Part shown: positions 5,520 to 26,195 of the stretch, piece after piece
How the letters are laid out: each line of letters opens with the position of its first letter
Numbering within the stretch: the first letter of the stretch is position 1
Origin: a virus
Taxonomy: Duplodnaviria; Heunggongvirae; Uroviricota; Caudoviricetes
Direction: 5' to 3' (one strand)
Virus record (IMG/VR): IMGVR_UViG_3300029305_011675
DNA length: 64,000 nucleotides
The notes under the pieces: model-generated
Databases searched by the model: none
Told to the model about the DNA's origin: nothing
What the model saw: only the letters and a program-made list of their open reading frames with translations
Made by a program: the position numbers and the translations under genes

Positions 5520-5596
5520 AAATGCAAAAAACCAGTTGACAAACCAAATTGTTTATGATATAATAAACGAGAAATCTAAACAAGGAGGTTATACCA

Positions 5597-6043
5597 ATGA
5601 GCATTCAAGAAACTGCAAAGCAGAATATGTATGCCGCTATGAAGGCGCACGACAAGCAGAAGAAAGATGCCTATGCAATGCTTTACGACCAACTTAAGAA
5701 GAAAGAAATCGACCTCCGTCACCCACTTACGGACGACGAGGAGATTGCCGTAGTCACAAAGATGGTCAAGCAGTGCAAGGACAGCATTGATTCTGTGCCA
5801 GAAGGCAAAGGTGGAGAATTCATTGAGAAGGTAAAATTCGAAATGGAAATCTATTCACAATTCCTTCCAACTTTGATGACCGAAGATGAAATCGTCGTTG
5901 TCATCAAGGAAACGATGGCAGAGTGTGGCATCGAAACTCTTGATAACAAGTCTCGTGGTTTGCTTATGAAGAACCTTATGCCAAAGGTTAAGGGCAAAGC
6001 AGATGGCAAACTCGTAGCAGACACCGTTAACAAGATGATGTAA
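5597..6043 (+). CDS. yqeY: GatB/YqeY domain-containing protein
   Basis: 148 aa. The pattern MS..E.....AMKA.DK..........LKKKE....H.LTDDE...V..K.VKQ....D......G matches the YqeY family. RBS aaggagg is present. Confidence 0.7.
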   Translation: MSIQETAKQNMYAAMKAHDKQKKDAYAMLYDQLKKKEIDLRHPLTDDEEIAVVTKMVKQCKDSIDSVPEGKGGEFIEKVKFEMEIYSQFLPTLMTEDEIVVVIKETMAECGIETLDNKSRGLLMKNLMPKVKGKADGKLVADTVNKMM

Positions 6044-6044: not shown

Positions 6045-6135
6045 TGTAAAATAGAAACTTAAACCGAAACATAGAAACTTATTCTGAAACATAGGAAAGT
6101 TCTCTAAAAGTAGGTTTGAAACTTATTCCGAAACA
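6045..6135 (+). repeat. Tn7R-like end: four contiguous ~20-bp putative TnsB-binding repeats (consensus gaaactta-n4-gaaaca)
   Basis: Sites at 6053-6071, 6073-6091, 6093-6110 (degenerate) and 6117-6135, preceded by a terminal 8 bp tgtaaaat. Confidence 0.75.
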
Positions 6136-6164
6136 AATGTAAATAATCATTTAATCTAAAACAA

Positions 6165-6200
6165 AAAATCCCTCTCGTAATGAGAGGGATTTTATTTTTT
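6165..6200 (+). terminator. Rho-independent terminator just inside the transposon end
   Basis: atccctctcgtaatgagagggat + tttatttttt. Confidence 0.75.
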
Positions 6201-6443
6201 AATTATAAAAAACACATTCAATACTTGACTTTTTCAGAAAAAGTTTATATATTCTATATTATTGTTGAAAATTTTACACAAGGTTGGAGAAAGCACTCCG
6301 CACTTTAAAAGCAAATCTGTCATTCTTATTGTATCAAAAAAACATATAAATCAGTCAAAATTTATATTTTCCAGTATGCTTTTCTATAATATAAAACAAA
6401 TATGTGCAATAATTTATACAAAAATTAAGAAGGTGGTGAATCT

Positions 6444-6737
6444 GTGATGCAAATTAAATGTTTTATAAATGACAATTTTCGAACACTCTCTTATCTTTAT
6501 GATATTAAAGGTGAGGATAATCGTGCCCGTATCACACAACAAGAGGTGGCTGACGCTCTTGGAATTAGTCGCTCTACGCTAAACAAAATTATGAATGAAC
6601 TGAAAAAAGAAGGTTATGTCGAACAAGATGGTAACTATATGGGTCGCTATATTGTTACGAATGCAGCCATTTCAGTTATCGAGACATTTAGAAGTATTGA
6701 TAAAAACGATAGAGGAGGCACTTATGACAGAAATTAA
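6444..6737 (+). CDS. Small HTH transcriptional regulator
   Basis: 97 aa. ITQQEVADALGISRSTLNKIMNELKKEGYV is a classic helix-turn-helix. RBS aaggtgg. Overlaps the start of the next gene by 14 nt. Confidence 0.65.
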   Translation: MMQIKCFINDNFRTLSYLYDIKGEDNRARITQQEVADALGISRSTLNKIMNELKKEGYVEQDGNYMGRYIVTNAAISVIETFRSIDKNDRGGTYDRN

Positions 6738-9384: not shown

Positions 9385-9386
9385 AT

Positions 9387-10337
9387 ATGGCTATACATAA
9401 TAAATCTCACAACAATTCTGCACTTATGTCTTTAAATAAAATGAATAAGGACAACATCAAGCATAAGACATCAAAGGACTTTGAGATGCCCGAAAAAAGC
9501 ATTCAACTATTAATGATTCAAGATTGCTTGACTGCATTAAAAGAACTACCAGATAAATCAATCCAATTAATTTGCATTGACCCTCCTTATAATTTGGATT
9601 TGGCAGATTGGGATACATATGATAATTATATGAGTTGGTGTGCTGAATGGTTAAATGAATGTTGGAGAGTTTTGAAAGACGAAGGCAGTTTAGTTGTTTT
9701 TGGTGGCACTCAATTTAGAGATGAAAGAAGCGGCGATTTAACTGAAATTATCTATCATTGTCGCCACAATACTAAATGGAAGTTAGTCAACACAATTGTT
9801 TGGTATTACAAAAATGGAATGTCTGCCCATAGATATTTTGCAAACCGTCATGAGGAAATTATTTGGTTCGTAAAAACCGATAAATATTACTTTGATTTAG
9901 ATTCTGTTAGAGTAAAATATTCAGAAGAAGATTTAAAAAATGCCTTAAAAGATAAGAGACTGAATCCTGAAAATGTTAAAAAAGGCAAAAATCCAACAAA
10001 TGTATGGGAAATAGGTAGATTAAATGGTAATTCGTTAGAAAGAGTTGGACATCCAACCCAAAAACCTTTAGCAGTCATCAGGAGATTAGTTAAAGCATTA
10101 TCATATCCTGGGTCAACCGTCTTGGATTTCTTTGCAGGTAGCGGAACAACAGGTAGAGTGTGTATTGAAGAAGGTAGACACTGTATTCTTATAGATAAAG
10201 GCGAAACAACTACCGATTATTTTAAAAAACATATTGAAAAAATGGAAAAAACAACACTTGCAAAACCCCACCAGTCTGTTGAAACAATTGAAGAATTTTT
10301 CAATTGTGTCGAAGAAGAAACAAATAAAAACAATTAA
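9387..10337 (+). CDS. Beta-class N6-adenine/N4-cytosine DNA methyltransferase
   Basis: Motif IV LICIDPPYN lies upstream of motif I VLDFFAGSGTTG. RBS ggagg. Starts 2 nt after the upstream stop. Confidence 0.8.
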   Translation: MAIHNKSHNNSALMSLNKMNKDNIKHKTSKDFEMPEKSIQLLMIQDCLTALKELPDKSIQLICIDPPYNLDLADWDTYDNYMSWCAEWLNECWRVLKDEGSLVVFGGTQFRDERSGDLTEIIYHCRHNTKWKLVNTIVWYYKNGMSAHRYFANRHEEIIWFVKTDKYYFDLDSVRVKYSEEDLKNALKDKRLNPENVKKGKNPTNVWEIGRLNGNSLERVGHPTQKPLAVIRRLVKALSYPGSTVLDFFAGSGTTGRVCIEEGRHCILIDKGETTTDYFKKHIEKMEKTTLAKPHQSVETIEEFFNCVEEETNKNN

Positions 10338-10661
10338 CACCTTAACTTATTACTGCGAATTTTAAGTTAAATACAAACAAAAATATGGAGTCCGCAATAT
10401 CGGACTCTAAACCAAATATAAAAAAGAAGCCCGCTACTGCGAATAGCGGACTTCCGTATAACAACACTAAAATTAACATTTGTATGACTACCAATCTAAC
10501 AAAAGTGTTTTTTAATGCTGCTTTCTTATTATAGCATTTTCTTATCTAAATGTCAACTCATTTTTGTTAGAAATTCAGTATTCTTATACTTTTGTTAATT
10601 TTGACTAATCTCGTTCCTGCTCGGAACACAAAAATATTAAAATATGATAGGAGTAGATATT

Positions 10662-12812
10662 ATGGATAATATAATGCTAACCGTTGGTAATGTTATTATA
10701 GATGAGCATAGTGGCAAACAATATCGAGTTGTTGCAGTTGTAAACAATGATATTACTTTATGCGAGATGAATACTACGAAGTTTTTACTCTCGTTAATGA
10801 ATAAACAAACCTTGTTCGCACTTGTGGCAACAGGTGAATTAATAATCAAAGTCGAACCACCCATCGTTTTCAACAAGGATGACTTACCAGAGGGTTTTCA
10901 GAAAAAATTCACAATAAGACAACAGATAATGAATGAGGTCCTCAAGGAATATGGACCATCTTATATTGAACTAAACGGTAAAAAACGAGGCAGGACAGTC
11001 AAGGATATAATGAGTAAATATAACTTGGCAAGATGTTCTTTCTGGAGAATATGTACTCAATATTTTCAAAGTGGTCTTCAAGATTATTCGTTAGTTGATT
11101 CGAGATATTTTGGTGCAAATACTGGCAAGACATATAATTATGAGACCAAAACTGGTCGCCCACCAGAATACTCTATGGCATCGGGAATTATTATCACCGA
11201 TGAAATTATCAAGCATTTTGAAGAAGCATTGAAAGATTATAAGTCTGGAAGACACAAATCCATCAAGGATGCTTTTGACAAAATGAATTTGTTGCATTTT
11301 ACAAAAACAGAAATAATTAACGGTCAACCCAGTATTGTTTTATTGCCCATATCAGAAAGACCAACACTCGACCAATTTAGATACTATTGCAACAAACATC
11401 TTACAAACCAAGAAAAAGACTTAATAAAAACATCTGCACTCGAACAAAAGAATAACAAAAGACTTCTTGTAAGCGATTCACTCAATGGTGTAAATGGACC
11501 TGGTGATTTGGTAGAAATCGATGCTTGCGAAGCAGATATATCGTTGGTTTCTGTTATTGACTCATCAAAAACTATCGGCAGACCGATAGTGTACTTTATG
11601 GTTGATGTATACTCTCGCATTATCTTGGCAGTGTCTGTTGCTTTTGATAATAACTCTATGCTTGGTTTATCAAACTTATTTCTAAACCTTGCAGATGATA
11701 AACAGAAGTATTGTGAGAGATACGGAATTAGTTATGAAAACAAAGATATTTGGCCATCAAACATTATTCCCAATCGTGTTCGTGTTGACAAAGGTGCTGA
11801 ATTTAGAAGCAAAGAGTTTGAGAGAATCTGCAATGAACTTGGTATTGAAAGAAATATCGTATTGCCAGGGTGTGGTTCTCTCAAAGGTATTGTAGAGCAG
11901 TCATTTAGACAATTACATCTCAAACAAAATCATCATCTTGAAAATCATGGTCTCATTACCCAAAGACACGATTCCAAACATCATCAAGAGGCGATGTTGA
12001 ATATTGAAGAATATACTAAAATGGTTATTGGTTTTGTTCTAACTCACAACCAACAATGCTTAACAAATTTCCCACTCACAAAAGATATGATTTTGAAGAA
12101 GGTTCAACCCATTCCTGCTTTGTTGTGGAAATATGGCATAAACAACGGTTTCACACCGAGACCAATCCCTTCGCTGCAACAATATCTATTCAATCTTATG
12201 ACACCTATCAATGCCAAAGTAAGCAGAAAAGGTATCAGTCATAAGGAATTATATTATCTAAACACAGAAGATAAAAAACTTGCTCGTGAGATGTTTGATG
12301 CTGGCAACAAAAGAAAAGATTTTGAAGCAAGAATGGATATGAGAGATGTTGGTTCGATTTATTATATCAGAGATAATAAGTTAATGGTCGCCAGACTTAA
12401 CCCGCTAATTCAAGGGAATGCGGAATATGCTGGTATGACGATGAAGGAATACGAAGATTTCCGCAAGGGTAAAAAAGAACTTCTCGCAGCAGGCAAGGTT
12501 AATAACGAAGAATTGTCTGCATTCAATTATGCGATGAACAATGCTATTGTTGAAGAAGCGACAAAACCAATGTTACCTTCTGCAAAAGATATGAGACCTG
12601 CTCGTGAGATTGAAAAGCAGGCAAAATCTAAATCTAATAAAATCAGCAAAAGATTAGAACAACCTAAACTCGAAGCACCAAAAACGGAAGATGTTTTGGT
12701 AGAAGAGTTTATTGAAAAAATAACCGAATGTCCTCCTGCAGAGGAAGTCCCAGTAAAGAAAAATAAGTTAAACACATATAGCAATTGGGACGAAGCATTG
12801 GAAGATTGGTAA
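10662..12812 (+). CDS. tnsB: Tn7 TnsB-like / Mu-type DDE transposase
   Basis: About 717 aa. The core matches TnsB/TniA integrases, e.g. IVYFMVDVYSRIILAVSVAFDNNS and RVRVDKGAEFRS. RBS taggag. Confidence 0.75.
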   Translation: MDNIMLTVGNVIIDEHSGKQYRVVAVVNNDITLCEMNTTKFLLSLMNKQTLFALVATGELIIKVEPPIVFNKDDLPEGFQKKFTIRQQIMNEVLKEYGPSYIELNGKKRGRTVKDIMSKYNLARCSFWRICTQYFQSGLQDYSLVDSRYFGANTGKTYNYETKTGRPPEYSMASGIIITDEIIKHFEEALKDYKSGRHKSIKDAFDKMNLLHFTKTEIINGQPSIVLLPISERPTLDQFRYYCNKHLTNQEKDLIKTSALEQKNNKRLLVSDSLNGVNGPGDLVEIDACEADISLVSVIDSSKTIGRPIVYFMVDVYSRIILAVSVAFDNNSMLGLSNLFLNLADDKQKYCERYGISYENKDIWPSNIIPNRVRVDKGAEFRSKEFERICNELGIERNIVLPGCGSLKGIVEQSFRQLHLKQNHHLENHGLITQRHDSKHHQEAMLNIEEYTKMVIGFVLTHNQQCLTNFPLTKDMILKKVQPIPALLWKYGINNGFTPRPIPSLQQYLFNLMTPINAKVSRKGISHKELYYLNTEDKKLAREMFDAGNKRKDFEARMDMRDVGSIYYIRDNKLMVARLNPLIQGNAEYAGMTMKEYEDFRKGKKELLAAGKVNNEELSAFNYAMNNAIVEEATKPMLPSAKDMRPAREIEKQAKSKSNKISKRLEQPKLEAPKTEDVLVEEFIEKITECPPAEEVPVKKNKLNTYSNWDEALEDW

Positions 12813-12825
12813 GGAGGTATTCGAT

Positions 12826-14433
12826 ATGGATATAAAATATAATTATTACGAATGTGAAAAATTCGAGACACAATATGAAGATTATGATTTTGAAGAAAAC
12901 AAAATCGTAAATGCCAGATATGTTAAGGCACTTGTTGAATGTGATATCGGTAACCCATACATAGAGGCATTGCCACATCCGAGACACGAAGATGATGTAA
13001 GAGATGCATACACAAAACATCTTTTAACATACGACTACGATAAGGTCAAAAATATGACCAAATTAGAAAAGATGTTGCAAGTTAGCACTTTAAGGCAGAT
13101 AAGATTTCCTCTTACATTCCACAAGAATTTGGAATTTTCATTCTATAATGCTTTAATTACATCTTATAGGTCAAGGAAAATCAAACCCATAAACGATAAA
13201 CCAATTGAATATATTTCAAACGATATAGAGACAGAAACCAACTGTGTTTTATATGGTAATTCTGCCGATTCTACAAATGCAGGATTCTCTCTCATAGGTT
13301 ATTCTGGTTGTGGCAAAAGTTCCGCAATCCAAACATTGCTTTCGCATTATCCACAAACCATTATACATCGTGTAGATGAGTTTACACAATATGTCCAGAT
13401 TGTTTATTTGGTTGTAAACTGTGTACCCAATAGTAATTTCTCTGCATTATATGAAGGCATTGGCGATGCTGTTGATAAGGCGCTCGGCAATACTCAACCT
13501 GTTTATGCAAAAGAGATTGCAAAAACAACCACACTTGGCAGAAAAATGGAGAAGGTTCGTGAGTTAATAGAAAGATTTGGTATCGGAATGATTATCTTTG
13601 ATGAGATACAACTCATAGATTTTGATAGAACAAAAGAAAGTTCTTTTGAATCTTTAATGACTTTATCTAACAGAACAAAAGTCGCTATCGCTGTTGTAGG
13701 TACAGAAGATGCCAGAGACAAAATGTTTAAGGAATTAAGAACCACAAGAAGAATTGGAACAGTAATCAACGGTAATATGTATTGTGAGAACAAAATGTTT
13801 TTTACATTCCTTGTCACTCAACTATTTAACTATCAATGGTTTGATGAACCAATTGATGTAACAGAGGAACTTGTAGATGCCCTCTACGATGTCACCAAAG
13901 GCATTGTGGACCAACTTATAGGAATATACTCCTGTATGCATTACGACTATTTAGAGCGAAAGAAACGCCCCGTAATCGATGCGAAATATGTCTATGATAT
14001 AGCACAAAGATATTACCCAGGAATTCAGAATGTTCTTGCGGATTTGGAATCAATTGAAGCGGCAAGAAAACTTATGGGCATCAGACAAGATGCAGAAGTT
14101 AGAGTCGCTTCTATCATTGATAATGCAAAGCAGGAAAAAGAAGCAGAAGACTTGTTACAAAAACAAAATAAAGCAGTCGATAAAATGCTAATGTTGAAAA
14201 ATATTGTAGCAAATATCACTGCCCTATATGATGAATATTCTCTTTCTCAAATTGAAAAGGCATTTAATTTAGTTATAAAACAGACCAAAGACAATCCTAA
14301 ATCCGAAAGAGAAATGAGTCGTTTGGTTCTTGATAAACTTACTCACAGAAGAAATACCAAATCTGCAGATAAAAAGAAAAAGTCGAGTATCCCAGAAATG
14401 GATACAACGACTATGAGAGATTTTATTGGATAA
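12826..14433 (+). CDS. tnsC: TnsC-like AAA+ ATPase (transposition regulator)
   Basis: Walker A is GYSGCGKSS and Walker B is GMIIFDEIQ. It sits immediately downstream of tnsB, with RBS aaggagg. Confidence 0.75.
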   Translation: MDIKYNYYECEKFETQYEDYDFEENKIVNARYVKALVECDIGNPYIEALPHPRHEDDVRDAYTKHLLTYDYDKVKNMTKLEKMLQVSTLRQIRFPLTFHKNLEFSFYNALITSYRSRKIKPINDKPIEYISNDIETETNCVLYGNSADSTNAGFSLIGYSGCGKSSAIQTLLSHYPQTIIHRVDEFTQYVQIVYLVVNCVPNSNFSALYEGIGDAVDKALGNTQPVYAKEIAKTTTLGRKMEKVRELIERFGIGMIIFDEIQLIDFDRTKESSFESLMTLSNRTKVAIAVVGTEDARDKMFKELRTTRRIGTVINGNMYCENKMFFTFLVTQLFNYQWFDEPIDVTEELVDALYDVTKGIVDQLIGIYSCMHYDYLERKKRPVIDAKYVYDIAQRYYPGIQNVLADLESIEAARKLMGIRQDAEVRVASIIDNAKQEKEAEDLLQKQNKAVDKMLMLKNIVANITALYDEYSLSQIEKAFNLVIKQTKDNPKSEREMSRLVLDKLTHRRNTKSADKKKKSSIPEMDTTTMRDFIG

Positions 14434-14448
14434 TAGGAGGAATAAAGT

Positions 14449-16575
14449 ATGAATAAATTCATTCCTATGATTGTTGCCCCTTACCCAGACGAATTCTTAT
14501 ATTCTTGGGTAATGAGATTAGCAAACGCCAATAAACTTTCCGTTCCTCTGTTTTTTGAAACCTATTTCGGTAAAGAATACTTTAGCAAGTTTTTACTTCC
14601 CATAGATATTAGAAAAGGTTTTGGTTCATTCTATAATTTTCTTAATTGTACAACCCCTGTTTCAGAATTATATTTAAGTTTATCTACTCTACAATTTGAA
14701 TTATTGTCTTATCCACCCAAGATGCAGACAAAGTTCATAAATCCTATTTTCAGAAAAGAAAATAACATATATACCATAAAAGAATATTTAATGACAGATT
14801 TCCGTATGTGTAAAGAATGTATGAAGGAAGATAAGGAATTATTCGGAGAAACTTACATTCATCGTTCTCATCAGTTAAATGGTGTTTGTGTTTGTCATAA
14901 ACATCACACCCCATTATTTATTCAAAAAAGGAATTCGAAATACATTTACAAAGATGAAACTTTGGAACAAATGGAGTTAGCAGACACTTTTGAAAAAGAG
15001 TGCGAATATGCTGATTATACCCATTTTCTGTTAGAAAACAATTTTCAATCTAATTCTAATGATTTAATGAAAATCATAATCGATAAATTAGGGATATTAG
15101 AATCAAATAAAAAGGAATTGGTCATAAAAATAAACGAAATACTCAAAAATGGCAAAACTTATTCCAAAGAAAGTTTGTGGTCTAAAAACGATTGTAACTT
15201 TCCAATAAAAGATTTTATTAAAGTATTGATGTATGCATACCCAAATCCAAAAGACATATTAGTAAAAGCGAAGAAATTTTCTCTAATCATTGAACAAAAA
15301 TGTGATAAGTGCGGTAAGACTTTTTACACAACAGAACAAGCACTTAAAGATGGATGGGGTTGTACATTTTGTGATGATAAACTTAAAGAAATAGATTTGA
15401 TAAAGAGATTGATTAAAATTGGTGGAAACGGAGAATATGTTTTCAAAGGTTTCCTACCAACTAAAACTAAAAACAGCATACGTCTATTCCATAAACCTTG
15501 TGGCGAAGAACACCTTACCAGTTTAAATAACTTCGTTTTTAATCACAAAAGATGCAAGTGTGGTATAAAAATGCAAAGAAAAGAAGCAGAAAAAGAGATG
15601 AAAAAACACCCACAATTCAAGTTGGTTGAATTTAACGGTGCTACATTTCCTGCAAAGTTCCGTCACAATGATTGTGGTAGAGAGTTTGAATATAAATCAT
15701 TCAGATGGTTTTTAAAATGGCCTAAATGTCCTCATTGTCAAGGATTTACAAAAGAAAATCTTGAACAAGAAATAAGGGATGTTGTTGGGGATGAATATAC
15801 GGTTTGTGATATTGGTTCTATTCGTAAAGATAAAGTCACCATTAGGCACAACATTTGTGGATGCGCACACGAATATGTGCCATACAATTTTCTTATTGGT
15901 GCCAGATGTCCCAAATGCTACAATCAAGTGTCGTTAAGGGAATTGAAAATAATGTTAAAAGAATATTCTGATGATAGATATGAAATTGTAGGAAAAAGAA
16001 AAGAAAAATGTATTATATATGACAAGGAAACAGACGAAACCATTGAGTTGACAAATAGACATATATTGCAAGAGATTAAAAGACCAACACCATCTTCCTT
16101 ATTACCTGTAAAAAATCGCAAATCCATTCAAAGTCCTTTGTCAACTTGGGATTTTTGGTATCAACTTTGTATTGAATACAAAAACGAGTTTGGACATCTG
16201 TGTCCAGTGATGAATGAAACATACAAAGGATATAATCTATATAGTTGGTTGATTGTAACCAGACAATATTACAGAAAAGGACAACTTTCACAAGAAAAGA
16301 TACAAGCACTTAAAGATATAGATTTTGTATTCGATACTGCATTTTATAAGTGGGAACAAAGGTTTAATGAATATAAAGTATTTGTTAATGAAACAGGAAA
16401 TTATTTTCCTTCAGTCAAAGAAATACACAATGGAAATAAAGTGGGTCAGTGGTTTTTAAGGCAACGAAAAGCGAAAAACAGAGGTAGTTTAAAACCAAAG
16501 TATGAAAAAATATTATTGGAATATTATTCAGATTTTTTTAAAAAACATCCAAGATACAAAAACAATACCATTTAA
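14449..16575 (+). CDS. tniQ: TniQ/TnsD-like target-selector protein
   Basis: The N-terminus MIVAPYPDEFLYSWVMRLANAN is the TniQ signature. Multiple CxxC/CxxH zinc-finger clusters. 708 aa, closer in size to TnsD. Confidence 0.7.
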   Translation: MNKFIPMIVAPYPDEFLYSWVMRLANANKLSVPLFFETYFGKEYFSKFLLPIDIRKGFGSFYNFLNCTTPVSELYLSLSTLQFELLSYPPKMQTKFINPIFRKENNIYTIKEYLMTDFRMCKECMKEDKELFGETYIHRSHQLNGVCVCHKHHTPLFIQKRNSKYIYKDETLEQMELADTFEKECEYADYTHFLLENNFQSNSNDLMKIIIDKLGILESNKKELVIKINEILKNGKTYSKESLWSKNDCNFPIKDFIKVLMYAYPNPKDILVKAKKFSLIIEQKCDKCGKTFYTTEQALKDGWGCTFCDDKLKEIDLIKRLIKIGGNGEYVFKGFLPTKTKNSIRLFHKPCGEEHLTSLNNFVFNHKRCKCGIKMQRKEAEKEMKKHPQFKLVEFNGATFPAKFRHNDCGREFEYKSFRWFLKWPKCPHCQGFTKENLEQEIRDVVGDEYTVCDIGSIRKDKVTIRHNICGCAHEYVPYNFLIGARCPKCYNQVSLRELKIMLKEYSDDRYEIVGKRKEKCIIYDKETDETIELTNRHILQEIKRPTPSSLLPVKNRKSIQSPLSTWDFWYQLCIEYKNEFGHLCPVMNETYKGYNLYSWLIVTRQYYRKGQLSQEKIQALKDIDFVFDTAFYKWEQRFNEYKVFVNETGNYFPSVKEIHNGNKVGQWFLRQRKAKNRGSLKPKYEKILLEYYSDFFKKHPRYKNNTI

Positions 16576-16658
16576 TTAAGAGTTTGGCGATAAAAAGAAA
16601 CTCGTTATTTTGATAAAAAAACAGGGGTGCCTTTTTTAATTGCTTTAATTCAATTCTA

Positions 16659-16687
16659 TTGACAGAATGGCATATTTATGTTATAAT
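16659..16687 (+). promoter_or_regulatory. Sigma-A promoter TTGACA-17-TGTTATAAT for the cargo ORFs
   Basis: ttgacagaatggcatatttatgttataat, followed by a ~120-nt leader that contains a 15-bp long-range helix (16716-16731 pairing with 16778-16792). Confidence 0.6.
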
Positions 16688-16809
16688 AAAATTAGAATTC
16701 CGCAAGTTTTAACTACTTATTCTTTTGAAGATTAACCTGAAGTAGAGGTTATAACTGGATTTCCACACACACGAATCTCTTCAAAAAATAAGAAACGAGG
16801 TTAAAAAAT

Positions 16810-17247
16810 ATGTTATTTGAATATGATTATTGCGGAATTATGTTTAGAAATCCTTTTGCATATGATAATAAACAAAATTATCATTGCGCGACAATGCTGT
16901 TAAATGCATTGTCATCGTATATTACCACATATCGTCCAAAGGAAGAACACACAAGCGAAAGTATTTACAAATTGCTTGTCGCCAATTCAGAACAAAGACA
17001 CATTGGTGATTCTCCTTTTGCTATCAATGGAAAAGGTAGTCTTTTAGATGCAATTTTTGAAGAACTCCGAATGAAAGTTCCCTGTTGTATCGAATTAGAA
17101 TATTATAAAATATTTAAAGCATTTCCATTGAAACAACAACTTTCAGTTATTGCCACCTTGATGGCAGAAAATTTTGGTTTAAGAGAAAAGGCAATCGAGA
17201 ATTTTCTTAAAAAATCAAAAGACCCGTTTGTAACAAACAAAGAATAA
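16810..17247 (+). CDS. Hypothetical protein (transposon cargo)
   Basis: 145 aa. RBS gaaacgagg. No recognisable motif. Confidence 0.5.
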   Translation: MLFEYDYCGIMFRNPFAYDNKQNYHCATMLLNALSSYITTYRPKEEHTSESIYKLLVANSEQRHIGDSPFAINGKGSLLDAIFEELRMKVPCCIELEYYKIFKAFPLKQQLSVIATLMAENFGLREKAIENFLKKSKDPFVTNKE

Positions 17248-17308
17248 AATTAATGGCATACGATTGGTTGTGTGTGCAATCGTATGCTATTTTTTAGGAG
17301 AATTAGTT

Positions 17309-18241
17309 ATGAGAGAAAATTTAAAACAACTTATAGGCGAAGAAATTAGTGGTGTAGCAAAGTGTGTCAGAAATGGACATCGTTGCCTATTGAGAGATAT
17401 CGTAGTAGACGACTCTTGTTCTTTTGACCCAGACTTATATTTAGCAATAGAACAACACTTGTGGACAGATTCTAATGTTATTGAGAAAAACAATATAAAA
17501 CGATATTCTTATTTTCGTTTCGCTGGCTCTGTATATGAGTATAAAAGAGAAAACGACACAACAGATTATTCTATCGAATTAAAAGAAGTTGAACCGATTG
17601 ATACTTTTAAGTATTTAAAAAGCAGAATTCAGCAATGCTATTGTAGACATGTGTGTTTATTTTTTGAACACTGCTATTATAACTGCTGTGCACCACAATC
17701 AGAAAAAGATAATTTTGTTATTCCTGTATTAGAAAAGATGTTTTTAGAAGAAGCAGTCAACGATTTTGCAGAAGAATATGAATTTTCACCAAAGGATTTT
17801 CTAAAAGAAATCAGGAACAAAACTCTATTTAAAATTAGTGATGCACATATTTATCTTGGTATGAATAAGGCAGATTTTATCAAAAGATATAAGTCCAACA
17901 TTATTGAGGGCAATGAGTTTGGATATAAAATGAAACCTATTGAAGTAGATAAAATCTTCTTAACTCCAGTTATTCATTTTATGAAAAACGGGATGTGCGA
18001 TGCAATTGCATTTGAGACTAATCAAGATAATTTAAATACTGCAATTCAATATATAAATAAAAAGTATAACACAAATGTTACACTTTTTAATCACAAAGAA
18101 TTGATTGACTTATTCAAAGCAGAGATGGAATTTGGAGATATTATTTTTGGTTATTCAAAAGCACAAGAAAATCATCCTGCTTCCATTGTTATGAGTTTGT
18201 CAACACCAATATCGACATATTTCTCGGTTGGCTTACAATAA
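17309..18241 (+). CDS. Hypothetical protein (transposon cargo)
   Basis: The internal ATG has RBS taggag. 310 aa, Cys-containing, no recognisable motif. Confidence 0.5.
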   Translation: MRENLKQLIGEEISGVAKCVRNGHRCLLRDIVVDDSCSFDPDLYLAIEQHLWTDSNVIEKNNIKRYSYFRFAGSVYEYKRENDTTDYSIELKEVEPIDTFKYLKSRIQQCYCRHVCLFFEHCYYNCCAPQSEKDNFVIPVLEKMFLEEAVNDFAEEYEFSPKDFLKEIRNKTLFKISDAHIYLGMNKADFIKRYKSNIIEGNEFGYKMKPIEVDKIFLTPVIHFMKNGMCDAIAFETNQDNLNTAIQYINKKYNTNVTLFNHKELIDLFKAEMEFGDIIFGYSKAQENHPASIVMSLSTPISTYFSVGLQ

Positions 18242-18303
18242 AATATTTTTATATAAACGGAAACTTATAAAAATAAAAAACAATTTATAACACTATTAAG
18301 TTT

Positions 18304-18439
18304 TGTTTCAAAACAAGTTTCACAACATTGTAACTATCAAAGACATTATATTGCTTTGTTTTATAATAAGTTTCTAATAAATCACGAAGAAAACTATGAA
18401 AAAGCATAGTTCTGTTTCAAAATAAGTTTATAATCAACA
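18304..18439 (-). repeat. Tn7L-like end: three spaced inverted copies of the ~20-bp repeat plus the terminal 8 bp
   Basis: tgtttcaaaacaagtttcac (18304-18323), tgttttataataagtttct (18358-18376) and tgtttcaaaataagtttat (18413-18431). Each is the reverse complement of gaaactt...gaaaca. The element ends ...atcaaca at 18439. Confidence 0.75.
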
Positions 18440-19629: not shown

Positions 19630-19643
19630 AGTGACAATTTGGT

Positions 19644-19675
19644 GAGGGCATCTTTGATGCCCTCATCTTTTTATG
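19644..19675 (+). terminator. Rho-independent terminator
   Basis: gagggcatctttgatgccctc + atcttttta. Confidence 0.75.
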
Positions 19676-19731
19676 CGACCAAAGCAATAAAAAAGTAAGC
19701 GCATTATGTGCTTACTTTTTTGCTTTGTATG

Positions 19732-19760
19732 TTGACATTGGGTATGTTTTATGGTATAAT
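19732..19760 (+). promoter_or_regulatory. Sigma-A promoter ttgacattgggtatgttttatggtataat
   Basis: Perfect -35, 17-bp spacer and an extended -10. A terminator hairpin sits at 19694-19726. Confidence 0.7.
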
Positions 19761-19791: not shown

Positions 19792-20478
19792 ATGGATATT
19801 GTTATTTCTATATATAAACAATGGTCTCAAATGATTTTGAGCGGAGAAAAACCCATTGAATTTAGAACAAAATTACCCAATGATTTTAAGAGTGGCGACA
19901 AGATTTATATCTACGAAACCGCAAGATATGGTGGTGCTCGTGCTATTGTAGGCGAATGTGTTGTGGATTACATCATTCCTGTATTAAGTTCTATTAAGAA
20001 TAATAAATGGCCTATTTATGGTGCATATCCTTTCATTGACTATTATTTCGAACACATCAAGGGCGATAAGGATATCGCAGAACATTACCGTAAACTCAAG
20101 AAGGAATTCGACACATACAAAAATTATCGCTATGGTTTTATTCTTAATTATGCTTTCTGCGAAGAAGAACTCGAAAGTCTTCGCACAACTGGAAGTTTAA
20201 TTGATACTTTTAAGATTTTTGATTACGACCTCGTAAAAAAGATTATCGACAAAAACGACATTGGTAATGCAAGAATTGAGGAATGCGATAAGTGGTTGTC
20301 CAAAATCGGTTATTACAACGAATTTGACGAAACTTACTACCAATATGGTATCGTCTTGAAAGATGTTATCAAATATGATACCCCCACTCCAACCTGTGAA
20401 TTTTTAGATAGGAACGGAAATCCAATTCAAAGAGCACCTCAATCTTGGATGTACACAAAAGGAAGAAAGGAGAACTAA
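19792..20478 (+). CDS. ASCH (PUA-like) domain protein with an unknown C-terminal domain
   Basis: The N-terminus MDIVISIYKQWSQMILSGEKPIEFRT resembles the ASCH-domain N-terminal strand region. 228 aa. Confidence 0.5.
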   Translation: MDIVISIYKQWSQMILSGEKPIEFRTKLPNDFKSGDKIYIYETARYGGARAIVGECVVDYIIPVLSSIKNNKWPIYGAYPFIDYYFEHIKGDKDIAEHYRKLKKEFDTYKNYRYGFILNYAFCEEELESLRTTGSLIDTFKIFDYDLVKKIIDKNDIGNARIEECDKWLSKIGYYNEFDETYYQYGIVLKDVIKYDTPTPTCEFLDRNGNPIQRAPQSWMYTKGRKEN

Positions 20479-20479
20479 T

Positions 20480-21370
20480 ATGGGTTGCGATATTCATACA
20501 ATTGTTGAAATAAAGAAAAATGGAAAGTGGGAATATGTCCCTGACTTACCCGTTGTTTTTGACAGCAGAAGTTACGGTGTTTTTTCCATCTTAAACAGAA
20601 ATGTCCGTAACAGTTACGGACGAGATGGTTTTGAGCAAAAAGGTCTACCCCACGATGTTAGTGGTCGCCGTTTTAGATTTACTTCTCACCGAGAAGAACT
20701 CGAAAGAGCATATAACCACAAGGAGACTTTTGTCTGTTATATTGGCGGAGAAGACAAAAAATATGTTCAAGTTTATGACGAAAGTCTGAAAACCGAAATT
20801 GATTTCGAATTTTACGAAGAACTTAAGAGCGGAATGACACACGAACAGTCGCTTCGCTATTATTCTCCCACTCAAACCGCTTACCCTCAAAAGTATTTTG
20901 TACAGGATGCACAAAAAGTTGGTGGGCAATTTATGGAAATTCCCTATCGTTTCCTATATTCTGACATCAAGGAATTCAATAAAGCATATTATAATTATCC
21001 TTGGTATGATGAAGAGCAAGACTTTGGATACTATGATGTCGATTTTGACAGCGACCTCCACAGTCATTCTTATCTTTCTCTGGCAGAACTCAAAACCAAG
21101 GTAATGACTAAATCTTCCGAAAAAGAATTTTTGGTTAATAAAGAGTTTTTGGTATGTCTTAAAGAAGAATTAGGTGGCGATTTTCCCGAAACAATGATTA
21201 TTGGTGACGAAGTGGATGGCAATAACAAAGTTTCCTTTGTAGTTGACCCTTATGAAACCTGTTGCCAAGAAAATTACAATGAAGGTGTTGAAGAACTATG
21301 CAAGATTAAAGAAAAGTACAATATAGTAAACGACGAAGATATTCGTATCGTTTTTGCTTTCGATTCTTAA
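20480..21370 (+). CDS. Hypothetical protein, 'MGCDIH...IRIVFAFD' family (paralog A)
   Basis: Shares with 22736..23683 the N-terminus MGCDIH.I.EI.KNGKW, FDSR.YG.FS.L, KGLP.D.S, SYLSL.EL and the C-terminus DIRIVFAFD. Starts 2 nt after the ASCH gene. Confidence 0.6.
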   Translation: MGCDIHTIVEIKKNGKWEYVPDLPVVFDSRSYGVFSILNRNVRNSYGRDGFEQKGLPHDVSGRRFRFTSHREELERAYNHKETFVCYIGGEDKKYVQVYDESLKTEIDFEFYEELKSGMTHEQSLRYYSPTQTAYPQKYFVQDAQKVGGQFMEIPYRFLYSDIKEFNKAYYNYPWYDEEQDFGYYDVDFDSDLHSHSYLSLAELKTKVMTKSSEKEFLVNKEFLVCLKEELGGDFPETMIIGDEVDGNNKVSFVVDPYETCCQENYNEGVEELCKIKEKYNIVNDEDIRIVFAFDS

Positions 21371-21387
21371 CAAAAAGGAGTGATTTT

Positions 21388-21957
21388 GTGATTTTATGGA
21401 CTGTACAACCAGTTGAAGTTTATGAGAAAATTTTAGAAACAGGTAAATATGTTTGTGATGGTAGGCGAACCGATAAATTTTTTCGAGACAGATATAAATG
21501 GTTGTGCGAAGAAATGAAAATCAAAATCGGCAAACCTCCTAAAAATGTAACATACCCTGTTTGGGCATGGCATACAAGGGACTTCAAAAGAAAGAAACCA
21601 GACCTTCGCTCTTCATCCGAACACGGACGCCGTGGCGACAAAATGGTTTGTATGGAAATTGAAGTACCAGATAAAGATGTTCTCCTGACAGACTTCGATG
21701 CTTGGCACTTTGTTCTCAATAAATGGTATTTAAACACCAATTGTTGGGATGAAGAAACCTTTGACAAAGACCATGAATGGTTAGATAGTCTTTCGAAAGA
21801 AGAAAGAGAACATGTCATTGAAGAATCTTGGCAAGGAATTTATAATATTGAACCCAAAGAAACGGACTGGTGTGCTCGTGGGAAATGGGTACAAGCAACC
21901 TTTTGGGAACTCAAAAAAGAATATATCAAAAAAGTACAGTTTTTTACTGTTAGATAA
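21388..21957 (+). CDS. DUF3841-like protein (tentative); GTG start
   Basis: MILWTVQPVEVYEKILETGKY resembles the DUF3841 N-terminus. RBS aaaggag. Confidence 0.4.
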   Translation: MILWTVQPVEVYEKILETGKYVCDGRRTDKFFRDRYKWLCEEMKIKIGKPPKNVTYPVWAWHTRDFKRKKPDLRSSSEHGRRGDKMVCMEIEVPDKDVLLTDFDAWHFVLNKWYLNTNCWDEETFDKDHEWLDSLSKEEREHVIEESWQGIYNIEPKETDWCARGKWVQATFWELKKEYIKKVQFFTVR

Positions 21958-21960: not shown

Positions 21961-21994
21961 AAAAAGCAACTTCTTTTCGAAGTTGCTTTTTTAG
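21961..21994 (+). terminator. Rho-independent terminator
   Basis: aaaaagcaacttcttttcgaagttgctttttt. Confidence 0.8.
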
Positions 21995-22026: not shown

Positions 22027-22055
22027 TTGACATTGAGAATACTTTGTGGTATAAT
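22027..22055 (+). promoter_or_regulatory. Sigma-A promoter ttgacattgagaatactttgtggtataat
   Basis: Consensus -35 and an extended -10. Confidence 0.7.
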
Positions 22056-22089
22056 AATATTAAAGAAAATACACAAAGGAGAATGAATT

Positions 22090-22722
22090 ATGAAGTTATA
22101 TATCTTTTCTTCTGTAAACGGTAAGATTTCTCGTGAGGAAAAGGAAGTTATTGAAAAGAACAAGATTTTTGTTGAGAAAGTTGGCATTTCTGAACGACAT
22201 TATGCAAAGAGTATGCTTGATGTTCCAGAGACCACTATTTCTTCTGTTTCTATGATTTCTTTAAATGGTCGTATTGACCACTTTGCGCAGGAAGTCTTAA
22301 AGGCGCAAAAGAATGAAATCGACAAACTTGAGAGAAAGCTCGCAGAAAAGAAAAATACACTAATTCGCTTTAAGATGAATTATGCTGGTGTATTGGAGTG
22401 TCGTGTTGAAAACGGCATTTATAATGCAGTTTCTACTCTTGAATTTAAGTACAATGGCGATATGGTCTCTGCCACCAAAGAATCTGTTGAAAATAAAACT
22501 CCCGTTCAGATTCCCCTACATCACATTGTGGACGGTGAGTTATTCTTTGAGATGATGGAAGAACACCCTTTCCTTTCCGTCTATAATATTTTTGTAAACG
22601 GAAATGCTACCAACCTTGCATTAGAAGGTTACGAAAACGGTAAGGAAAACGAATGTGTAATTTCTATGGAAAAGTTAAAGAAAATGCACGAAAAAACCAA
22701 GTTAGAAATTGATTGCGAATAA
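22090..22722 (+). CDS. Hypothetical protein
   Basis: 210 aa. RBS aaaggag. Confidence 0.55.
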   Translation: MKLYIFSSVNGKISREEKEVIEKNKIFVEKVGISERHYAKSMLDVPETTISSVSMISLNGRIDHFAQEVLKAQKNEIDKLERKLAEKKNTLIRFKMNYAGVLECRVENGIYNAVSTLEFKYNGDMVSATKESVENKTPVQIPLHHIVDGELFFEMMEEHPFLSVYNIFVNGNATNLALEGYENGKENECVISMEKLKKMHEKTKLEIDCE

Positions 22723-22735
22723 GGAGGAAATTTAA

Positions 22736-23683
22736 ATGGGTTGCGATATTCATATTATCACAGAAATCAGAAAAAATGGCAAATGGCAATGGGTAAAAGA
22801 AATCCCAGAATCATTTGACAGCAGAAATTATGGTCTTTTTTCAGTTCTTGCAGGTGTAAGAAACTCTTTCAACATCAAGGGCTTTGAAGCGAAGGGTCTC
22901 CCCGAAGACATCAGTGCAATGAAATTTGACTTCGAAACTTACACAAACAGAGCAAAAGAAAGATTTTATGACGACAATGATGGTCAAATCCTCTTTGTTG
23001 ACAAAGACGGTAATTACCACGAACCTTCTGCTGTTGAGAAAACTCATCTCACAAAAGAGGAATATGAGACACTCAATGTAAAACAAAGAACAGAAGTTGA
23101 TACATTTGATAAGCAGTATAATTCTCTCGGTTATACTCAAAGCGGAAATCAGACACCCGATTATTATGTTCGAGATGCTTATGCAAATGGTGGTCGCTTT
23201 GAACGGATTCCTCACTATAAGTATTACCCCAATATTGAAGCATTTCTAAAAGATTACTACGAAGACGACTGGGATGAAGAAATGCAAGATTATGGTCGCT
23301 GGAGAGTAAACTTCGAATACTGCGGTCCTCACGGCGATTACCACACCCCAAGTTTCCTTTCTCTCCACGAACTCATCACTGCTGATTTGAAGGACTATTA
23401 TTCTGACAAATACAAGATGGATGTTGCTTTTTATGAAGCATTCAAGAGAATGGGCGGAACTCTTCCCGAAGGTATGACCGTTCAGGAATTCACTCCTGAA
23501 ACTTTGCAGGATGTTTTTCAGTCTGCACTTTGCCCAGTTATTTTGGTAGTCTGGGAAAAGGACGAAGAGGCAAAGAAAGAAACTGCACTTTACTGTGGTA
23601 TCGAAGAAATGAAAGAAATCGCAAAGAAGTACGGCATCGACGACCCTAACGACATTCGTATTGTATTTGCATTCGATAATTAA
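22736..23683 (+). CDS. Hypothetical protein, 'MGCDIH...IRIVFAFD' family (paralog B)
   Basis: Same terminal and internal motifs as 20480..21370. RBS aaggagg. Confidence 0.6.
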   Translation: MGCDIHIITEIRKNGKWQWVKEIPESFDSRNYGLFSVLAGVRNSFNIKGFEAKGLPEDISAMKFDFETYTNRAKERFYDDNDGQILFVDKDGNYHEPSAVEKTHLTKEEYETLNVKQRTEVDTFDKQYNSLGYTQSGNQTPDYYVRDAYANGGRFERIPHYKYYPNIEAFLKDYYEDDWDEEMQDYGRWRVNFEYCGPHGDYHTPSFLSLHELITADLKDYYSDKYKMDVAFYEAFKRMGGTLPEGMTVQEFTPETLQDVFQSALCPVILVVWEKDEEAKKETALYCGIEEMKEIAKKYGIDDPNDIRIVFAFDN

Positions 23684-23708
23684 ATGTGTTAATACTATGT
23701 CTTATTAC

Positions 23709-23749
23709 AGAACCACTTTCTTTGAAAGTGGTTCTTTTGTATGTTTTTT
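23709..23749 (+). terminator. Rho-independent terminator
   Basis: gaaccactttctttgaaagtggttc + ttttgtatgtttttt. Confidence 0.8.
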
Positions 23750-23760
23750 GTATTTTCTGG

Positions 23761-23789
23761 TTGACATTCGCAGTGTTTTATGGTATAAT
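23761..23789 (+). promoter_or_regulatory. Sigma-A promoter ttgacattcgcagtgttttatggtataat
   Basis: Consensus -35 and an extended -10. Confidence 0.7.
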
Positions 23790-23816
23790 TATATTAAAGA
23801 AAAAGGAGGAATTGAT

Positions 23817-26195
23817 ATGAAAAAAGCACATTTTGAAGCACTTTTGGAGGTAAATAATTTACCCACCAAACTTATCACTAAAATGATTGGAAAGAATATT
23901 TTCTTCCCGATTTTTAAGACTTCGCAAAAAACAATTATTGTCCCTAATGGCAAAAAAGAGAAGAAAACCGATTGCATTTGTTCCAACTGCAGTCATAGGT
24001 TCTCTATCTCTGGCGAAGTATCTACTCTCGTCTGCCCAGAATGTGGAAGCAATGATACCTATTACTCTCCGAGAGCAATTAGCGACCTAAAGGAAGACTT
24101 TACTTTTTCAAAAGATGTAGATATTTATATTTGCACCGAAGAAGATAGCAAGAGTTTCTTCCATGCAGACTTCCAGTATGGAAATTCCGACAGTCGTTAT
24201 CGTAATTCCCATGCTACTTTCGTATTAGACAAAGCAGTTGTCGAAGATGAAACCTATTATATTCTTCACGAATACAAAGGATTTTTCAATTTTGACGAAA
24301 CAACTGGTCAGAGAAATCTTATGTTCCTTGATGAAGGAAATATGATTATCTTTAGCAAGTCGGAAATTGCAAATGTTCGTTCTTACAGACGGTCAACCGC
24401 ATCCTTTTATAATTCCTATACAACAACCTATGACCGTAAGAAAATTATTTTGGCAGAGGATGCTTTATTCAATGAGTTTTTCGCAATGACTACTGGTTAT
24501 AATGCGAACAACATCAAAGAACTGTTAAGCAAAACCAAAACCAATGGTTTTTACAGTATCGACCTTGCAAAATTAGATAATGTTCGTTATATGATTAAAG
24601 AGAATAGACCTGTCAGCAAGTCTGCAAATAAGCGAGAGATGTTAGTAAAGTCCATTTACGAAACTCTCCCGAAACCCACTCCTTTCACTGTCAAAAACGA
24701 CCATATTTATTACACCATTACGGAGATTGATGAAATCGCAAACTCACAGACCATTAAATATATTTGTCCCGACTGTGGCGGTATTAATTCTGTTGTAATT
24801 AACAGATACCAAAGTGCTGCCGAAAGAGAGACTATGGAGTTCTCTTGCGACCATTGCGGTGTAGTCATTCCTTTCAATAGGATGAAGGATTTGACAACCA
24901 CAAACAATATCAAACATTCGGTCAATGTTGTTTGCGACTATAATAACGGTATTATTATTTTTGATGCCCTTTACCGTTGTTTGGCAGAAAACGGAAGAAA
25001 TTTATTTATCCCGATTACCGAAAATCATTATCCCAAAACTATTATTGTAATTGATAAAGAGTTTGACAAGGATAACATTATGGCAAACACCACAATTCTT
25101 CGTGGCAATGGTTATGGTTTATCTTATTCTATGGCAAAAACTTTCAAAATCAACTACAATTCATCTATCCCTTATATTCACAATATGGCAACCAATTTCA
25201 ATATGCAATGGTCTGCCATTGATAGAATTAACGAGCAAAGTAGATATCGTGATTCTGCAAGTACAGACACAGTTGCTGCATTTGCACTGCTTTACAGAAA
25301 ATATCCCGTGCTCGAAAAATTCATAAAAGAAGGACAAACATCTATCCTTTCTAACATTTTGGAAAAATTTGATTGGATTACACTTTCTCCAGAAGTAAAG
25401 TTTGACCTTGAAAAGAATGATGTTGCATCTGCTTTGAGAATTTCTAAAAGTTGTGTAAAAATTCTTAACTCGCTTTCTCCCGATAGACGAGTTGATGCAC
25501 ACAACTCTCTGCAATTACTCTATAACCTTGATAACAACATCACTGCTGAAAATTATCAGTATATTACAAACAACTACATTTCTGTATATAAAGTAGCAGA
25601 TATTTGTAGAAAATTTGGTCTTTCCATTCATCAAATTTGTGAATATATTGAACGAGTTCGTCTTACACAATGTGTAAATCCCCAAACAGCAACTTCTGAA
25701 TGGGCAGACTATTTGGATGCCTGTGAAGTTATTGGTTCTGACCTAAATGACAGACGAGTGAAATACCCCGCTGCTCTTCGTACCGAACACGATAAGGTTG
25801 TTTACAAAAAGAAAATTATTGAAGACGAACAGAGCGAAGAAAAATTCCAAAAAACTACCGAAGAATACGGCAAAAAGTATTCCCACAAAGGTCAGAAGTA
25901 TATGATTACCTATCCGAAAACACTGAAAGATTTGTTTGAGGAAGGTAGATTGCTCAACCACTGTGTTGGTTCTTATGGAGATGCCATCAAGCGAGGGGAT
26001 AGTGTCATTCTCTTTGTAAGAAAAGTTGACGAACCTGACACTCCTTACTTCACTCTTGAAGTAAAACCCGCTTACAATGCAATCACCCAGTTTTATGGAC
26101 ATTCTGACCATCCCCCTCACAGAGTAAGGGATAAAGAACTTATTGAATATATCAGTAAGTGGGCAAAAAATAACGATATTCGTTATTCCAAGTAA
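23817..26195 (+). CDS. PcfJ-like domain protein with zinc-ribbon motifs
   Basis: Internal ATG with RBS aaaggagg. CxxC...CxxC pairs (CSNCSH..CPECGS; CPDCGG..CDHCG). The C-terminus LKDLFEEGRLLNHCVGSYGDAIKRGDSVILFVR resembles the PcfJ domain. Confidence 0.5.
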   Translation: MKKAHFEALLEVNNLPTKLITKMIGKNIFFPIFKTSQKTIIVPNGKKEKKTDCICSNCSHRFSISGEVSTLVCPECGSNDTYYSPRAISDLKEDFTFSKDVDIYICTEEDSKSFFHADFQYGNSDSRYRNSHATFVLDKAVVEDETYYILHEYKGFFNFDETTGQRNLMFLDEGNMIIFSKSEIANVRSYRRSTASFYNSYTTTYDRKKIILAEDALFNEFFAMTTGYNANNIKELLSKTKTNGFYSIDLAKLDNVRYMIKENRPVSKSANKREMLVKSIYETLPKPTPFTVKNDHIYYTITEIDEIANSQTIKYICPDCGGINSVVINRYQSAAERETMEFSCDHCGVVIPFNRMKDLTTTNNIKHSVNVVCDYNNGIIIFDALYRCLAENGRNLFIPITENHYPKTIIVIDKEFDKDNIMANTTILRGNGYGLSYSMAKTFKINYNSSIPYIHNMATNFNMQWSAIDRINEQSRYRDSASTDTVAAFALLYRKYPVLEKFIKEGQTSILSNILEKFDWITLSPEVKFDLEKNDVASALRISKSCVKILNSLSPDRRVDAHNSLQLLYNLDNNITAENYQYITNNYISVYKVADICRKFGLSIHQICEYIERVRLTQCVNPQTATSEWADYLDACEVIGSDLNDRRVKYPAALRTEHDKVVYKKKIIEDEQSEEKFQKTTEEYGKKYSHKGQKYMITYPKTLKDLFEEGRLLNHCVGSYGDAIKRGDSVILFVRKVDEPDTPYFTLEVKPAYNAITQFYGHSDHPPHRVRDKELIEYISKWAKNNDIRYSK

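Follow-up and report, generated by a model that had tools for sequence, protein, structure and literature searches.

A three-gene operon of ASCH, MGCDIH-superfamily and DUF3841 proteins tentatively assigned to nucleic-acid processing or repair

We analysed a 64,000-nucleotide stretch of DNA (the window; IMG/VR record IMGVR_UViG_3300029305_011675) and describe here three adjacent genes at positions 19792-21957. The open reading frames (ORFs) lie on the plus strand at 19792-20478 (gene 1, 228 aa), 20480-21370 (gene 2, 296 aa) and 21388-21957 (gene 3, 189 aa), where an earlier inspection of the letters and ORFs alone (the sequence-only reading) had placed them. Gene 1 encodes an ASCH protein of the type of ZmASCH from Zymomonas mobilis, with an insertion of ~100 aa at about residues 76-178. 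The product of gene 2 starts with MGCDIH and ends with IRIVFAFDS, and is a long form of an uncharacterised superfamily with the signature MGxDIH...HSHS...RIVFxFD. Gene 3 encodes a DUF3841 protein with a predicted ADP-ribosyltransferase (ART)-like fold; its GTG start is confirmed by the N-termini (MILWT...) of the DUF3841 family.

The three genes are tightly spaced. The gap between genes 2 and 3 is 17 nt, as the sequence-only reading had it, and the gap between genes 1 and 2 is 1 nt (TAA t ATG) rather than the 2 nt that it gave. An AAGGAG ribosome-binding site precedes gene 2 and another precedes gene 3. Upstream of gene 1, on the plus strand at 19732-19760, lies a promoter that matches the consensus at 12 of 12 positions (TTGACA, a 17-nt spacer and TATAAT) and has a TG before the -10 hexamer; the same motif is found directly upstream of the gene 1 orthologues in four related loci (L001, L141, L142 and L024). 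Two plus-strand intrinsic terminators at 19641-19667 and 19688-19722, each a stem-loop followed by a T-run, close the upstream unit orf187-orf129. A further intrinsic terminator ends the operon at 21961-21991, with the hairpin AAAAAGCAACTTC...GAAGTTGCTTTTT followed by T's on the plus strand; the terminator scan reports it on the minus strand. Judged by the promoter, the ribosome-binding sites and the bracketing terminators, genes 1-3 are a real operon, a single tricistronic transcription unit, in keeping with the gene content and tight coupling first proposed. With a promoter this close to consensus, expression of the operon looks constitutive.

Gene 1 scores 13.8 bits against the Pfam ASCH model (PF04266), under the gathering threshold of 21.2 (E=0.096), and matches the crystal structures of ZmASCH (PDB 5y6c/5gus/5guq) with an E-value of 2.4e-4. 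Its GxKxxExR motif is formed by G18, K20, E23 and R25; K20, E23 and R25 do not vary among 22 orthologues, and the conservation of G18 there is at least 90%. A profile of these orthologues aligns significantly to ZmASCH over residues 3-75 (E=7e-4), whereas residues 179-220, which include a C-terminal PQS motif shared with ZmASCH, align to its C-terminal part without reaching significance on their own. Because both ends of the protein align to ZmASCH, the ASCH domain probably extends over the entire protein and is split by the ~100-aa insertion, which lies between the barrel halves and distinguishes gene 1 from ZmASCH. The proposed ASCH identity therefore holds, despite the Pfam score below threshold, but the N-terminal domain in which it had been cast does not: there is probably no N-terminal module. 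The N-terminus of gene 1 also matches phrog_3136 (2e-15).

ZmASCH has been described as a nucleic-acid-binding protein that promotes RNA cleavage. BapA, which has been termed ASCH-like, strips glucose from DNA containing glucosylated 5-hydroxymethylcytosine, and YqfB-type proteins and EOLA1 are N4-acetylcytidine amidohydrolases. In the literature found, the ASCH relatives described so far are enzymes (an RNase, N4-acetylcytidine amidohydrolases and a DNA deglucosylase), and not fused sensor domains. Gene 1 resembles ZmASCH (PDB 5GUQ/5GUS/5Y6B/5Y6C) and these enzymes (YqfB-type, EOLA1, BapA) in being small and stand-alone; similarity to YqfB-type structures was not detected at E<=1.

Gene 2 gave no meaningful match to Pfam, NCBIfam, PADLOC or PDB sequences, either as a single sequence or with profiles, and when gene 2 and 72 diverse relatives were scanned singly no Pfam family was found in any of them. 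Its relatives are numerous. A word-indexed search returned 96 unnamed relatives, and an exhaustive profile search recovered 6,270 cluster representatives at E<=1e-3, of which 1,433 fall at E<=1e-10. The 'MGCDIH family' of the sequence-only reading is thus real and large, but it is not a named family. Most members are short forms of 190-250 aa that lack the middle ~120 residues of gene 2, and gene 2 itself matches a PHROG phage family that is listed there as of unknown function.

Twelve residues are conserved across the superfamily (M1, G2, D4, H6, R30, Y32, R43, H194, S197, E203, R289 and D295). In the predicted structure of gene 2 (predicted local distance difference test, pLDDT, 94.6) the conserved polar residues gather at strand ends. 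A Foldseek search of the model against BFVD returned uncharacterised phage proteins only, and no structural neighbour was found in the PDB. The invariant D4-x-H6, H194-S-H196-S, E203 and D295 suggest a metal-dependent hydrolase, which we infer would act on phosphate groups of polynucleotide ends or of nucleotides. We also considered gene 2 as a calcineurin-like phosphoesterase and rejected that assignment: the motifs look alike only by eye, and neither Pfam nor the fold search gave a match to the metallophosphoesterase superfamily.

Gene 3 had been called 'DUF3841-like', which understates the relationship. It matches PF12952 over its full length (residues 2-180 to model positions 1-177 of 178) with 104.9 bits against a threshold of 27 (E=5e-30). 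The family comprises more than 550 stand-alone proteins of ~190 aa, and a literature search for DUF3841/PF12952 and for the PHROG identifiers found no mention of them. The predicted structure of gene 3 (pLDDT 95.1) has the split beta-sheet that defines the ART fold, and its best fold matches include the toxins TreX, TreTu, DarT, RES, Tne2 and MbcT. At the level of sequence no similarity to ART-fold proteins was found, and the DUF3841 profile gave chance-level matches only when compared with PDB sequences. The conserved features of the family are E90-x-E92 at a strand end (E90 at least 90% conserved, the motif being E-x-E/D), a P-V-W-A-W strand and five invariant tryptophans. The first strand (L-W-T-x-Q-P) has no invariant His or Arg, as judged from residue conservation.

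Gene 3 thus shares its predicted fold class with the ADP-ribosyltransferase superfamily (DarT, Tpt1/KptA, cholera/pertussis-like toxins, TreX/TreTu, RES, CC0527 and BC2332), but differs from it in lacking the R-H-R-R tetrad of Tpt1 and apparently also the H-Y-E and R-S-E triads. The five invariant tryptophans are unusual in this superfamily, and no macro-domain, NADAR or other antidote gene adjoins gene 3. From the residue pattern, the W-x-W on the second strand and E90-x-E92 could substitute for the classical triad residues. We are fairly confident that gene 3 has an ART fold, and that it probably binds nicotinamide adenine dinucleotide (NAD+). Two closer identifications, with both of which the fold class agrees, were tried and rejected: Tpt1/KptA (PF01885), since the Pfam match and the tetrad are absent, and DarT (DUF4433), since the Pfam match is absent, the adjoining genes encode ASCH and MGCDIH proteins, and the NADAR gene of the window lies 23 kb away. 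A tblastn search against plasmids gave 12 matches for gene 3, mostly on megaplasmids, and no match for gene 2. In two annotated plasmid contexts no recurring DUF3841 partner was seen; in one of them, a Paenibacillus plasmid, the DUF3841 gene overlaps a downstream helix-turn-helix (HTH) regulator gene.

Relatives of the three genes were collected by tblastn and family hidden Markov models into a neighbourhood set of about 142 loci (designated by L numbers). Within this set the complete trio is confined to the window, a near-identical strain (L024), L001/L002 and L141, and the components were not found to be co-inherited across divergent genomes. Flanking pilin-like genes are common to L001 and the window, while L141 and the window have in common a downstream orf210-like gene and a second MGCDIH paralogue. 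In L142 genes 1 and 2 are present and gene 3 is absent. Gene 1 orthologues at the same divergence (46-58% identity) occur alone in five lineages (L003/L004, L026, L027, L028 and L140). Orthologues of gene 2 are found without genes 1 and 3 in L020 and L021 (62% and 44% identity) and on many phage contigs, and more distant MGCDIH proteins stand alone in 11 IMG/VR loci. MGCDIH is alone in 19 loci and DUF3841 in 23. Adjacency of genes 1 and 2 is nevertheless retained down to 54% identity, in five lineages. The strain in L024 has ~93% DNA identity to the window; 16 nt after gene 3 it carries a gene for a 462-aa membrane protein (4575-5963), MgtE-like by eye, which fills a 1.4-kb segment missing from the window.

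Clustering of the neighbouring genes around DUF3841 and MGCDIH revealed no universal partner and no conserved immunity or antidote partner. Certain kinds of neighbour recur around the relatives. In L018 (6709-8945) the stop codon of a gene for a 430-aa protein, a fusion of an AAA_33 kinase and a metallophosphatase, overlaps the start of a 314-aa MGCDIH protein, with a DeoC gene just upstream; the two domains of this fusion are those paired in polynucleotide kinase-phosphatases. P-loop kinases and/or metallophosphatases also adjoin MGCDIH genes in L020, L135 and L137. Wherever gene 2 is absent, a Metallophos_2 gene is located 0.8-2 kb upstream of the gene 1 orthologue. In four viral contigs an RtcB RNA ligase is encoded on the same strand as DUF3841, ~1 kb upstream of it. 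The RtcB gene encodes 710 aa in L126 and 395 aa in L128, a difference suggestive of an intein-type insertion. Integrases and restriction-modification genes are likewise found near DUF3841 in relatives, and a HAD_SAK_2 match falls at one of the DUF3841 loci.

We favour the interpretation of the locus as a constitutive operon whose three enzymes, each also found separately, process or repair nucleic acid, probably RNA, with the use of NAD+, and give this reading a probability of roughly 0.38. In the proposed mechanism the gene 1 protein would bind single-stranded nucleic acid and then cleave it or remove a base modification. Gene 2 would supply a putative metal-dependent phosphoesterase of a new family, acting on polynucleotide ends or nucleotides. 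Gene 3 would use NAD+ as DarT or Tpt1 does, either for the ADP-ribosylation of a nucleic acid or protein or for the removal of a phosphate. Jointly, the three would most likely process or repair nucleic acid, probably RNA, that is damaged or modified.

This reading is supported by the match of gene 1 to ZmASCH, a protein reported to bind nucleic acids and to promote the cleavage of RNA, and by the modified-cytosine hydrolases among other ASCH proteins. Further support comes from the transcription and translation signals of the operon, from the gathering of gene 2's conserved polar residues at strand ends of its model, from the conservation of E90 in the E-x-E/D motif of gene 3, from the kinase and metallophosphatase genes that adjoin MGCDIH relatives, and from the presence of Metallophos_2 near gene 1 orthologues without gene 2 and of RtcB near DUF3841. 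There is a partial likeness to known RNA repair cassettes (Pnkp/Hen1, T4 Pnk+Rnl1, RtcB-based and Tpt1), in that translational coupling to a kinase-metallophosphatase is seen among relatives of gene 2, relatives of gene 3 are located near RtcB, and the fold class of gene 3 includes Tpt1. In contrast to those cassettes, the operon contains no recognisable ligase, kinase or Hen1.

Several points weigh against it. We infer the catalytic activities of all three proteins, as well as their common substrate, throughout. The trio is not conserved as a unit, so that a shared pathway is not required, and the kinase, phosphatase and RtcB associations come from few lineages, some of which are related by descent. 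The housekeeping nucleotide genes found nearby (Gmk, CoaE and DeoC) may just reflect a small genome. The fold search did not detect a relationship of gene 2 to any phosphoesterase fold.

Nearly as likely is the explanation that the operon holds unrelated accessory genes, which share one strong promoter, act each on its own, and keep their order by descent within one clade. The occurrence of every family alone (gene 1 in its five lineages, MGCDIH and DUF3841 in 19 and 23 loci) is consistent with such an arrangement, as is the lack of a conserved partner for either DUF3841 or MGCDIH across loci. Moreover, carriers of the trio share flanking genes (L001) or downstream gene order (L141) with the window, so that the arrangement looks inherited, and the segment after gene 3 is plastic, with the membrane-protein insertion in L024 and the absence of gene 3 from L142. 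However, the 1-nt and 17-nt spacing with ribosome-binding sites, together with the adjacency of genes 1 and 2 down to 54% identity, suggests selection for co-expression, and each of the three proteins has a predicted function that involves nucleic acids or nucleotides.

The sequence-only reading had proposed a pattern like that of modification-dependent defence, a PUA-like reader coupled to effectors. In such a module the ASCH protein would detect modified DNA or RNA of phages, with genes 2 and 3 as the effectors, for example NAD+-consuming or ADP-ribosylating ones. The placement of ASCH in the PUA-like superfamily, alongside modification readers, stands: PUA-like domains, ASCH included, are listed as the modification sensors of type IV restriction enzymes (PMC12191111). 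ART-fold and NADase effectors are also known in immunity, and DarT and RES are among the fold matches of gene 3. Residues 1-62 of gene 1 match the PADLOC PDC-M11B models (E=1.5e-10 and 8e-7), which is the sole match in the defence libraries. PDC-M11 is an unvalidated candidate system, named in just two papers of the literature searched, that calls for all its components, and the ASCH N-terminus alone matches here: neither the other PDC-M11 models nor a partner component were matched in the eight proteins scanned (genes 1-3 and five neighbours). Domain-library scans of genes 1-3 found no PD-(D/E)xK, HNH, GIY-YIG, PLD or other known effector domain.

The surroundings of the operon could also speak for defence. 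The locus lies in a hypervariable region beside a Tn7-like element at 6054-18429, directly upstream of the operon region, with TnsB (rve), TniB and TniQ-HA genes. Its ends are marked by three direct repeats of ~22-25 nt (6054-6142) and three inverted copies (18299-18429), and its cargo includes a ResIII helicase that matches type IV restriction models (7e-77) and an N4/N6 methylase. In a near-identical strain (L030) position 6053 of the window is joined to position 19717 via 294 unrelated bases, and the element is absent there as well as from L001; the defence-like and mobile genes beside the operon are therefore a recent and incidental insertion. We considered the element as the carrier of the operon and rejected this, since the transposon ends at ~18429 and the operon is present in genomes without it.

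A likeness to type IV modification-dependent restriction enzymes (EVE/YTH/SRA/ASCH fused to nucleases) is limited to a PUA-like protein beside uncharacterised proteins in a variable region. Unlike in those enzymes, no nuclease is fused or adjoining, the ASCH protein stands by itself, and relatives can do without its partners. An apparently constitutive consensus promoter is also hard to square with an untamed toxic ART effector. With the effector nuclease absent, PDC-M11 incomplete and unvalidated, the components occurring apart at the same divergence, DUF3841 and MGCDIH lacking a conserved partner for immunity or as antidote, and the mobile neighbours incidental, the defence proposal is weakly supported and we regard it as unlikely. 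If it were true, the operon would be a new type IV-like immune system, which the present analysis makes improbable. The best explanation of the data is that the operon is not a sensor with effectors.

Two further transcription units follow the operon on the plus strand. The second unit (22027-23735) has a promoter of the same type (22027-22055), orf210 (22090-22722), a second MGCDIH paralogue with 37% identity to gene 2 (22736-23683) and a terminator (23709-23735). A homologue of orf210, a 210-aa unknown protein, is also located 3' of the gene 2 orthologue in L021 (8001-9621). Because this pairing recurs in the window (22090-23683) and in L021, orf210 may accompany MGCDIH proteins more faithfully than the ASCH or DUF3841 genes do. 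The third unit (23761-26195) again has a promoter of this type (23761-23789) and encodes a PcfJ-like protein (PF14284, 4.6e-31) with two zinc-ribbon-like segments ahead of the PcfJ domain. Its ORF was called mechanically at 23661-26195 (844 aa) from a TTG start. A terminator, a consensus promoter and a ribosome-binding site fall within the first 135 nt of that ORF, and because the promoter and ribosome-binding site lie inside it, the true start is probably the ATG at 23798 (~798 aa) and not the TTG at 23661.

The operon promoter belongs to a pattern that runs through the window. TTGACA-N14-TGNTATAAT has 25 matches (20 of them perfect) in the 64 kb, against 0.09 expected by chance, or about one per transcription unit, and is frequently extended to TTGACATTG...TTTRTG; examples are those at 4112, 5536, 16659, 19732, 22027, 23761, 29017, 41445, 46476, 59178 and 62992. 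Related contigs (L022, L024 and L140-L142) show the same density, while just 2 matches were found in 1.19 Mb of IMG/VR loci. Consensus promoters this uniform are unusual for a genome.

The exact proteins were found on 6-19 contigs each, the longest being 678,911 bp. The window contains genes for MetK, RNase HI, an epimerase, CDF, MgtC and Band-7 as well as four DNA methylases and a GIY-YIG homing endonuclease, and neither a tRNA nor a structural phage gene was found in its 64 kb. Contigs with homologues of the three genes, several of which have the same promoter motif, hold DnaE, LigA, GyrB, TopA, SSB, Gmk and CoaE. In one of them (L022, 9927-12826) gyrB is apparently split into two ORFs by a GIY-YIG gene. 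The operon is best explained as part of a variable region of the chromosome of a low-GC gut microbe that is uncultured, and the host replicon is most likely that of a small-genome low-GC bacterium, a megaphage being the less likely alternative. Elsewhere in the window, several prepilin-type (N_methyl) paralogues, one of them with DUF6273 as its C-terminal domain, are encoded at 469-1776 and 4521-5519; their counterparts in L001 (4538-7818 and 16107-17447) are conserved in position. A group of NAD/ADP-ribose genes on the minus strand comprises a long NAMPT-like gene (39141-41015), a PRPP-synthetase-like (Prs-like) gene (43962-44822), a NADAR-isochorismatase fusion (45355-46353) and a Nudix-NrtR regulator (54270-54986). 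The NAMPT-like and Prs-like pair may resemble the NAD-reconstitution pathways known from phages.

These surroundings bear on the idea that the trio serves a mobile element or a very large phage in counter-defence or host takeover and is expressed early from consensus promoters of host type. The ART-fold protein would then modify targets in the host or its immune signals, and the other two would neutralise nucleases of the host or repair the damage that these cause. Genes 1 and 2 match PHROG phage families, and MGCDIH proteins occur in early or replication regions of viral contigs beside methylases and a Lar-type restriction-alleviation gene. A PcfJ-like gene two units downstream, the NAMPT-like, Prs-like and NADAR genes, the DNA methylases and homing endonuclease, and the 25 near-perfect promoters would all fit such an element. 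However, the replicon is at least 679 kb in length and has genes of an ordinary cellular kind (MetK, RNase HI, CDF, MgtC and an epimerase), the contigs bearing homologues include DnaE, LigA, GyrB, TopA, Gmk and CoaE, the window is devoid of structural phage genes and tRNA, and tblastn of genes 1-3 found no match in 50,697 GenBank phage records. We consider this counter-defence reading improbable.

A toxin-immunity cassette, with DUF3841 as an ART-type toxin (as in DarT, RES and Rhs tips) and gene 1 or 2 as the antidote, is very improbable: toxins do figure among the best fold matches of gene 3 (TreX, TreTu, DarT, RES, Tne2 and MbcT), and the overlap with an HTH regulator gene in the Paenibacillus plasmid would suit it, but DUF3841 is usually solitary and without a conserved neighbour, the classical catalytic triads appear to be missing, a secretion or Rhs context is absent, and L142 has genes 1 and 2 but no gene 3.

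The operon is a new combination of two known, poorly understood families and one undescribed family. It is weak as a candidate defence system; its main interest lies in a large family without a known fold and in the assignment of DUF3841 to the ART fold. For gene 2 there is now a confident model of a very large phage and bacterial family that is absent from curated Pfam and NCBIfam and has no solved relative, as well as a conserved candidate active site and a first contextual clue, the coupling to a kinase-phosphatase. The provisional placement of DUF3841 in the ADP-ribosyltransferase fold class can be tested by NAD+ assays. A bolder extension, which we put forward as a long shot, is that the MGxDIH...HSHS...RIVFxFD proteins would have a new fold and form a novel class of metal-dependent enzymes that heal or even seal polynucleotide ends. 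Combined with an ASCH protein acting as nuclease or de-modifying enzyme and with DUF3841 as an ART-fold enzyme dependent on NAD+, they would constitute an undescribed pathway of RNA repair or de-modification common to gut bacteria and phages. The operon offers a compact, naturally co-expressed set with which to test whether ASCH, ART-fold and MGCDIH proteins share a nucleic-acid substrate.

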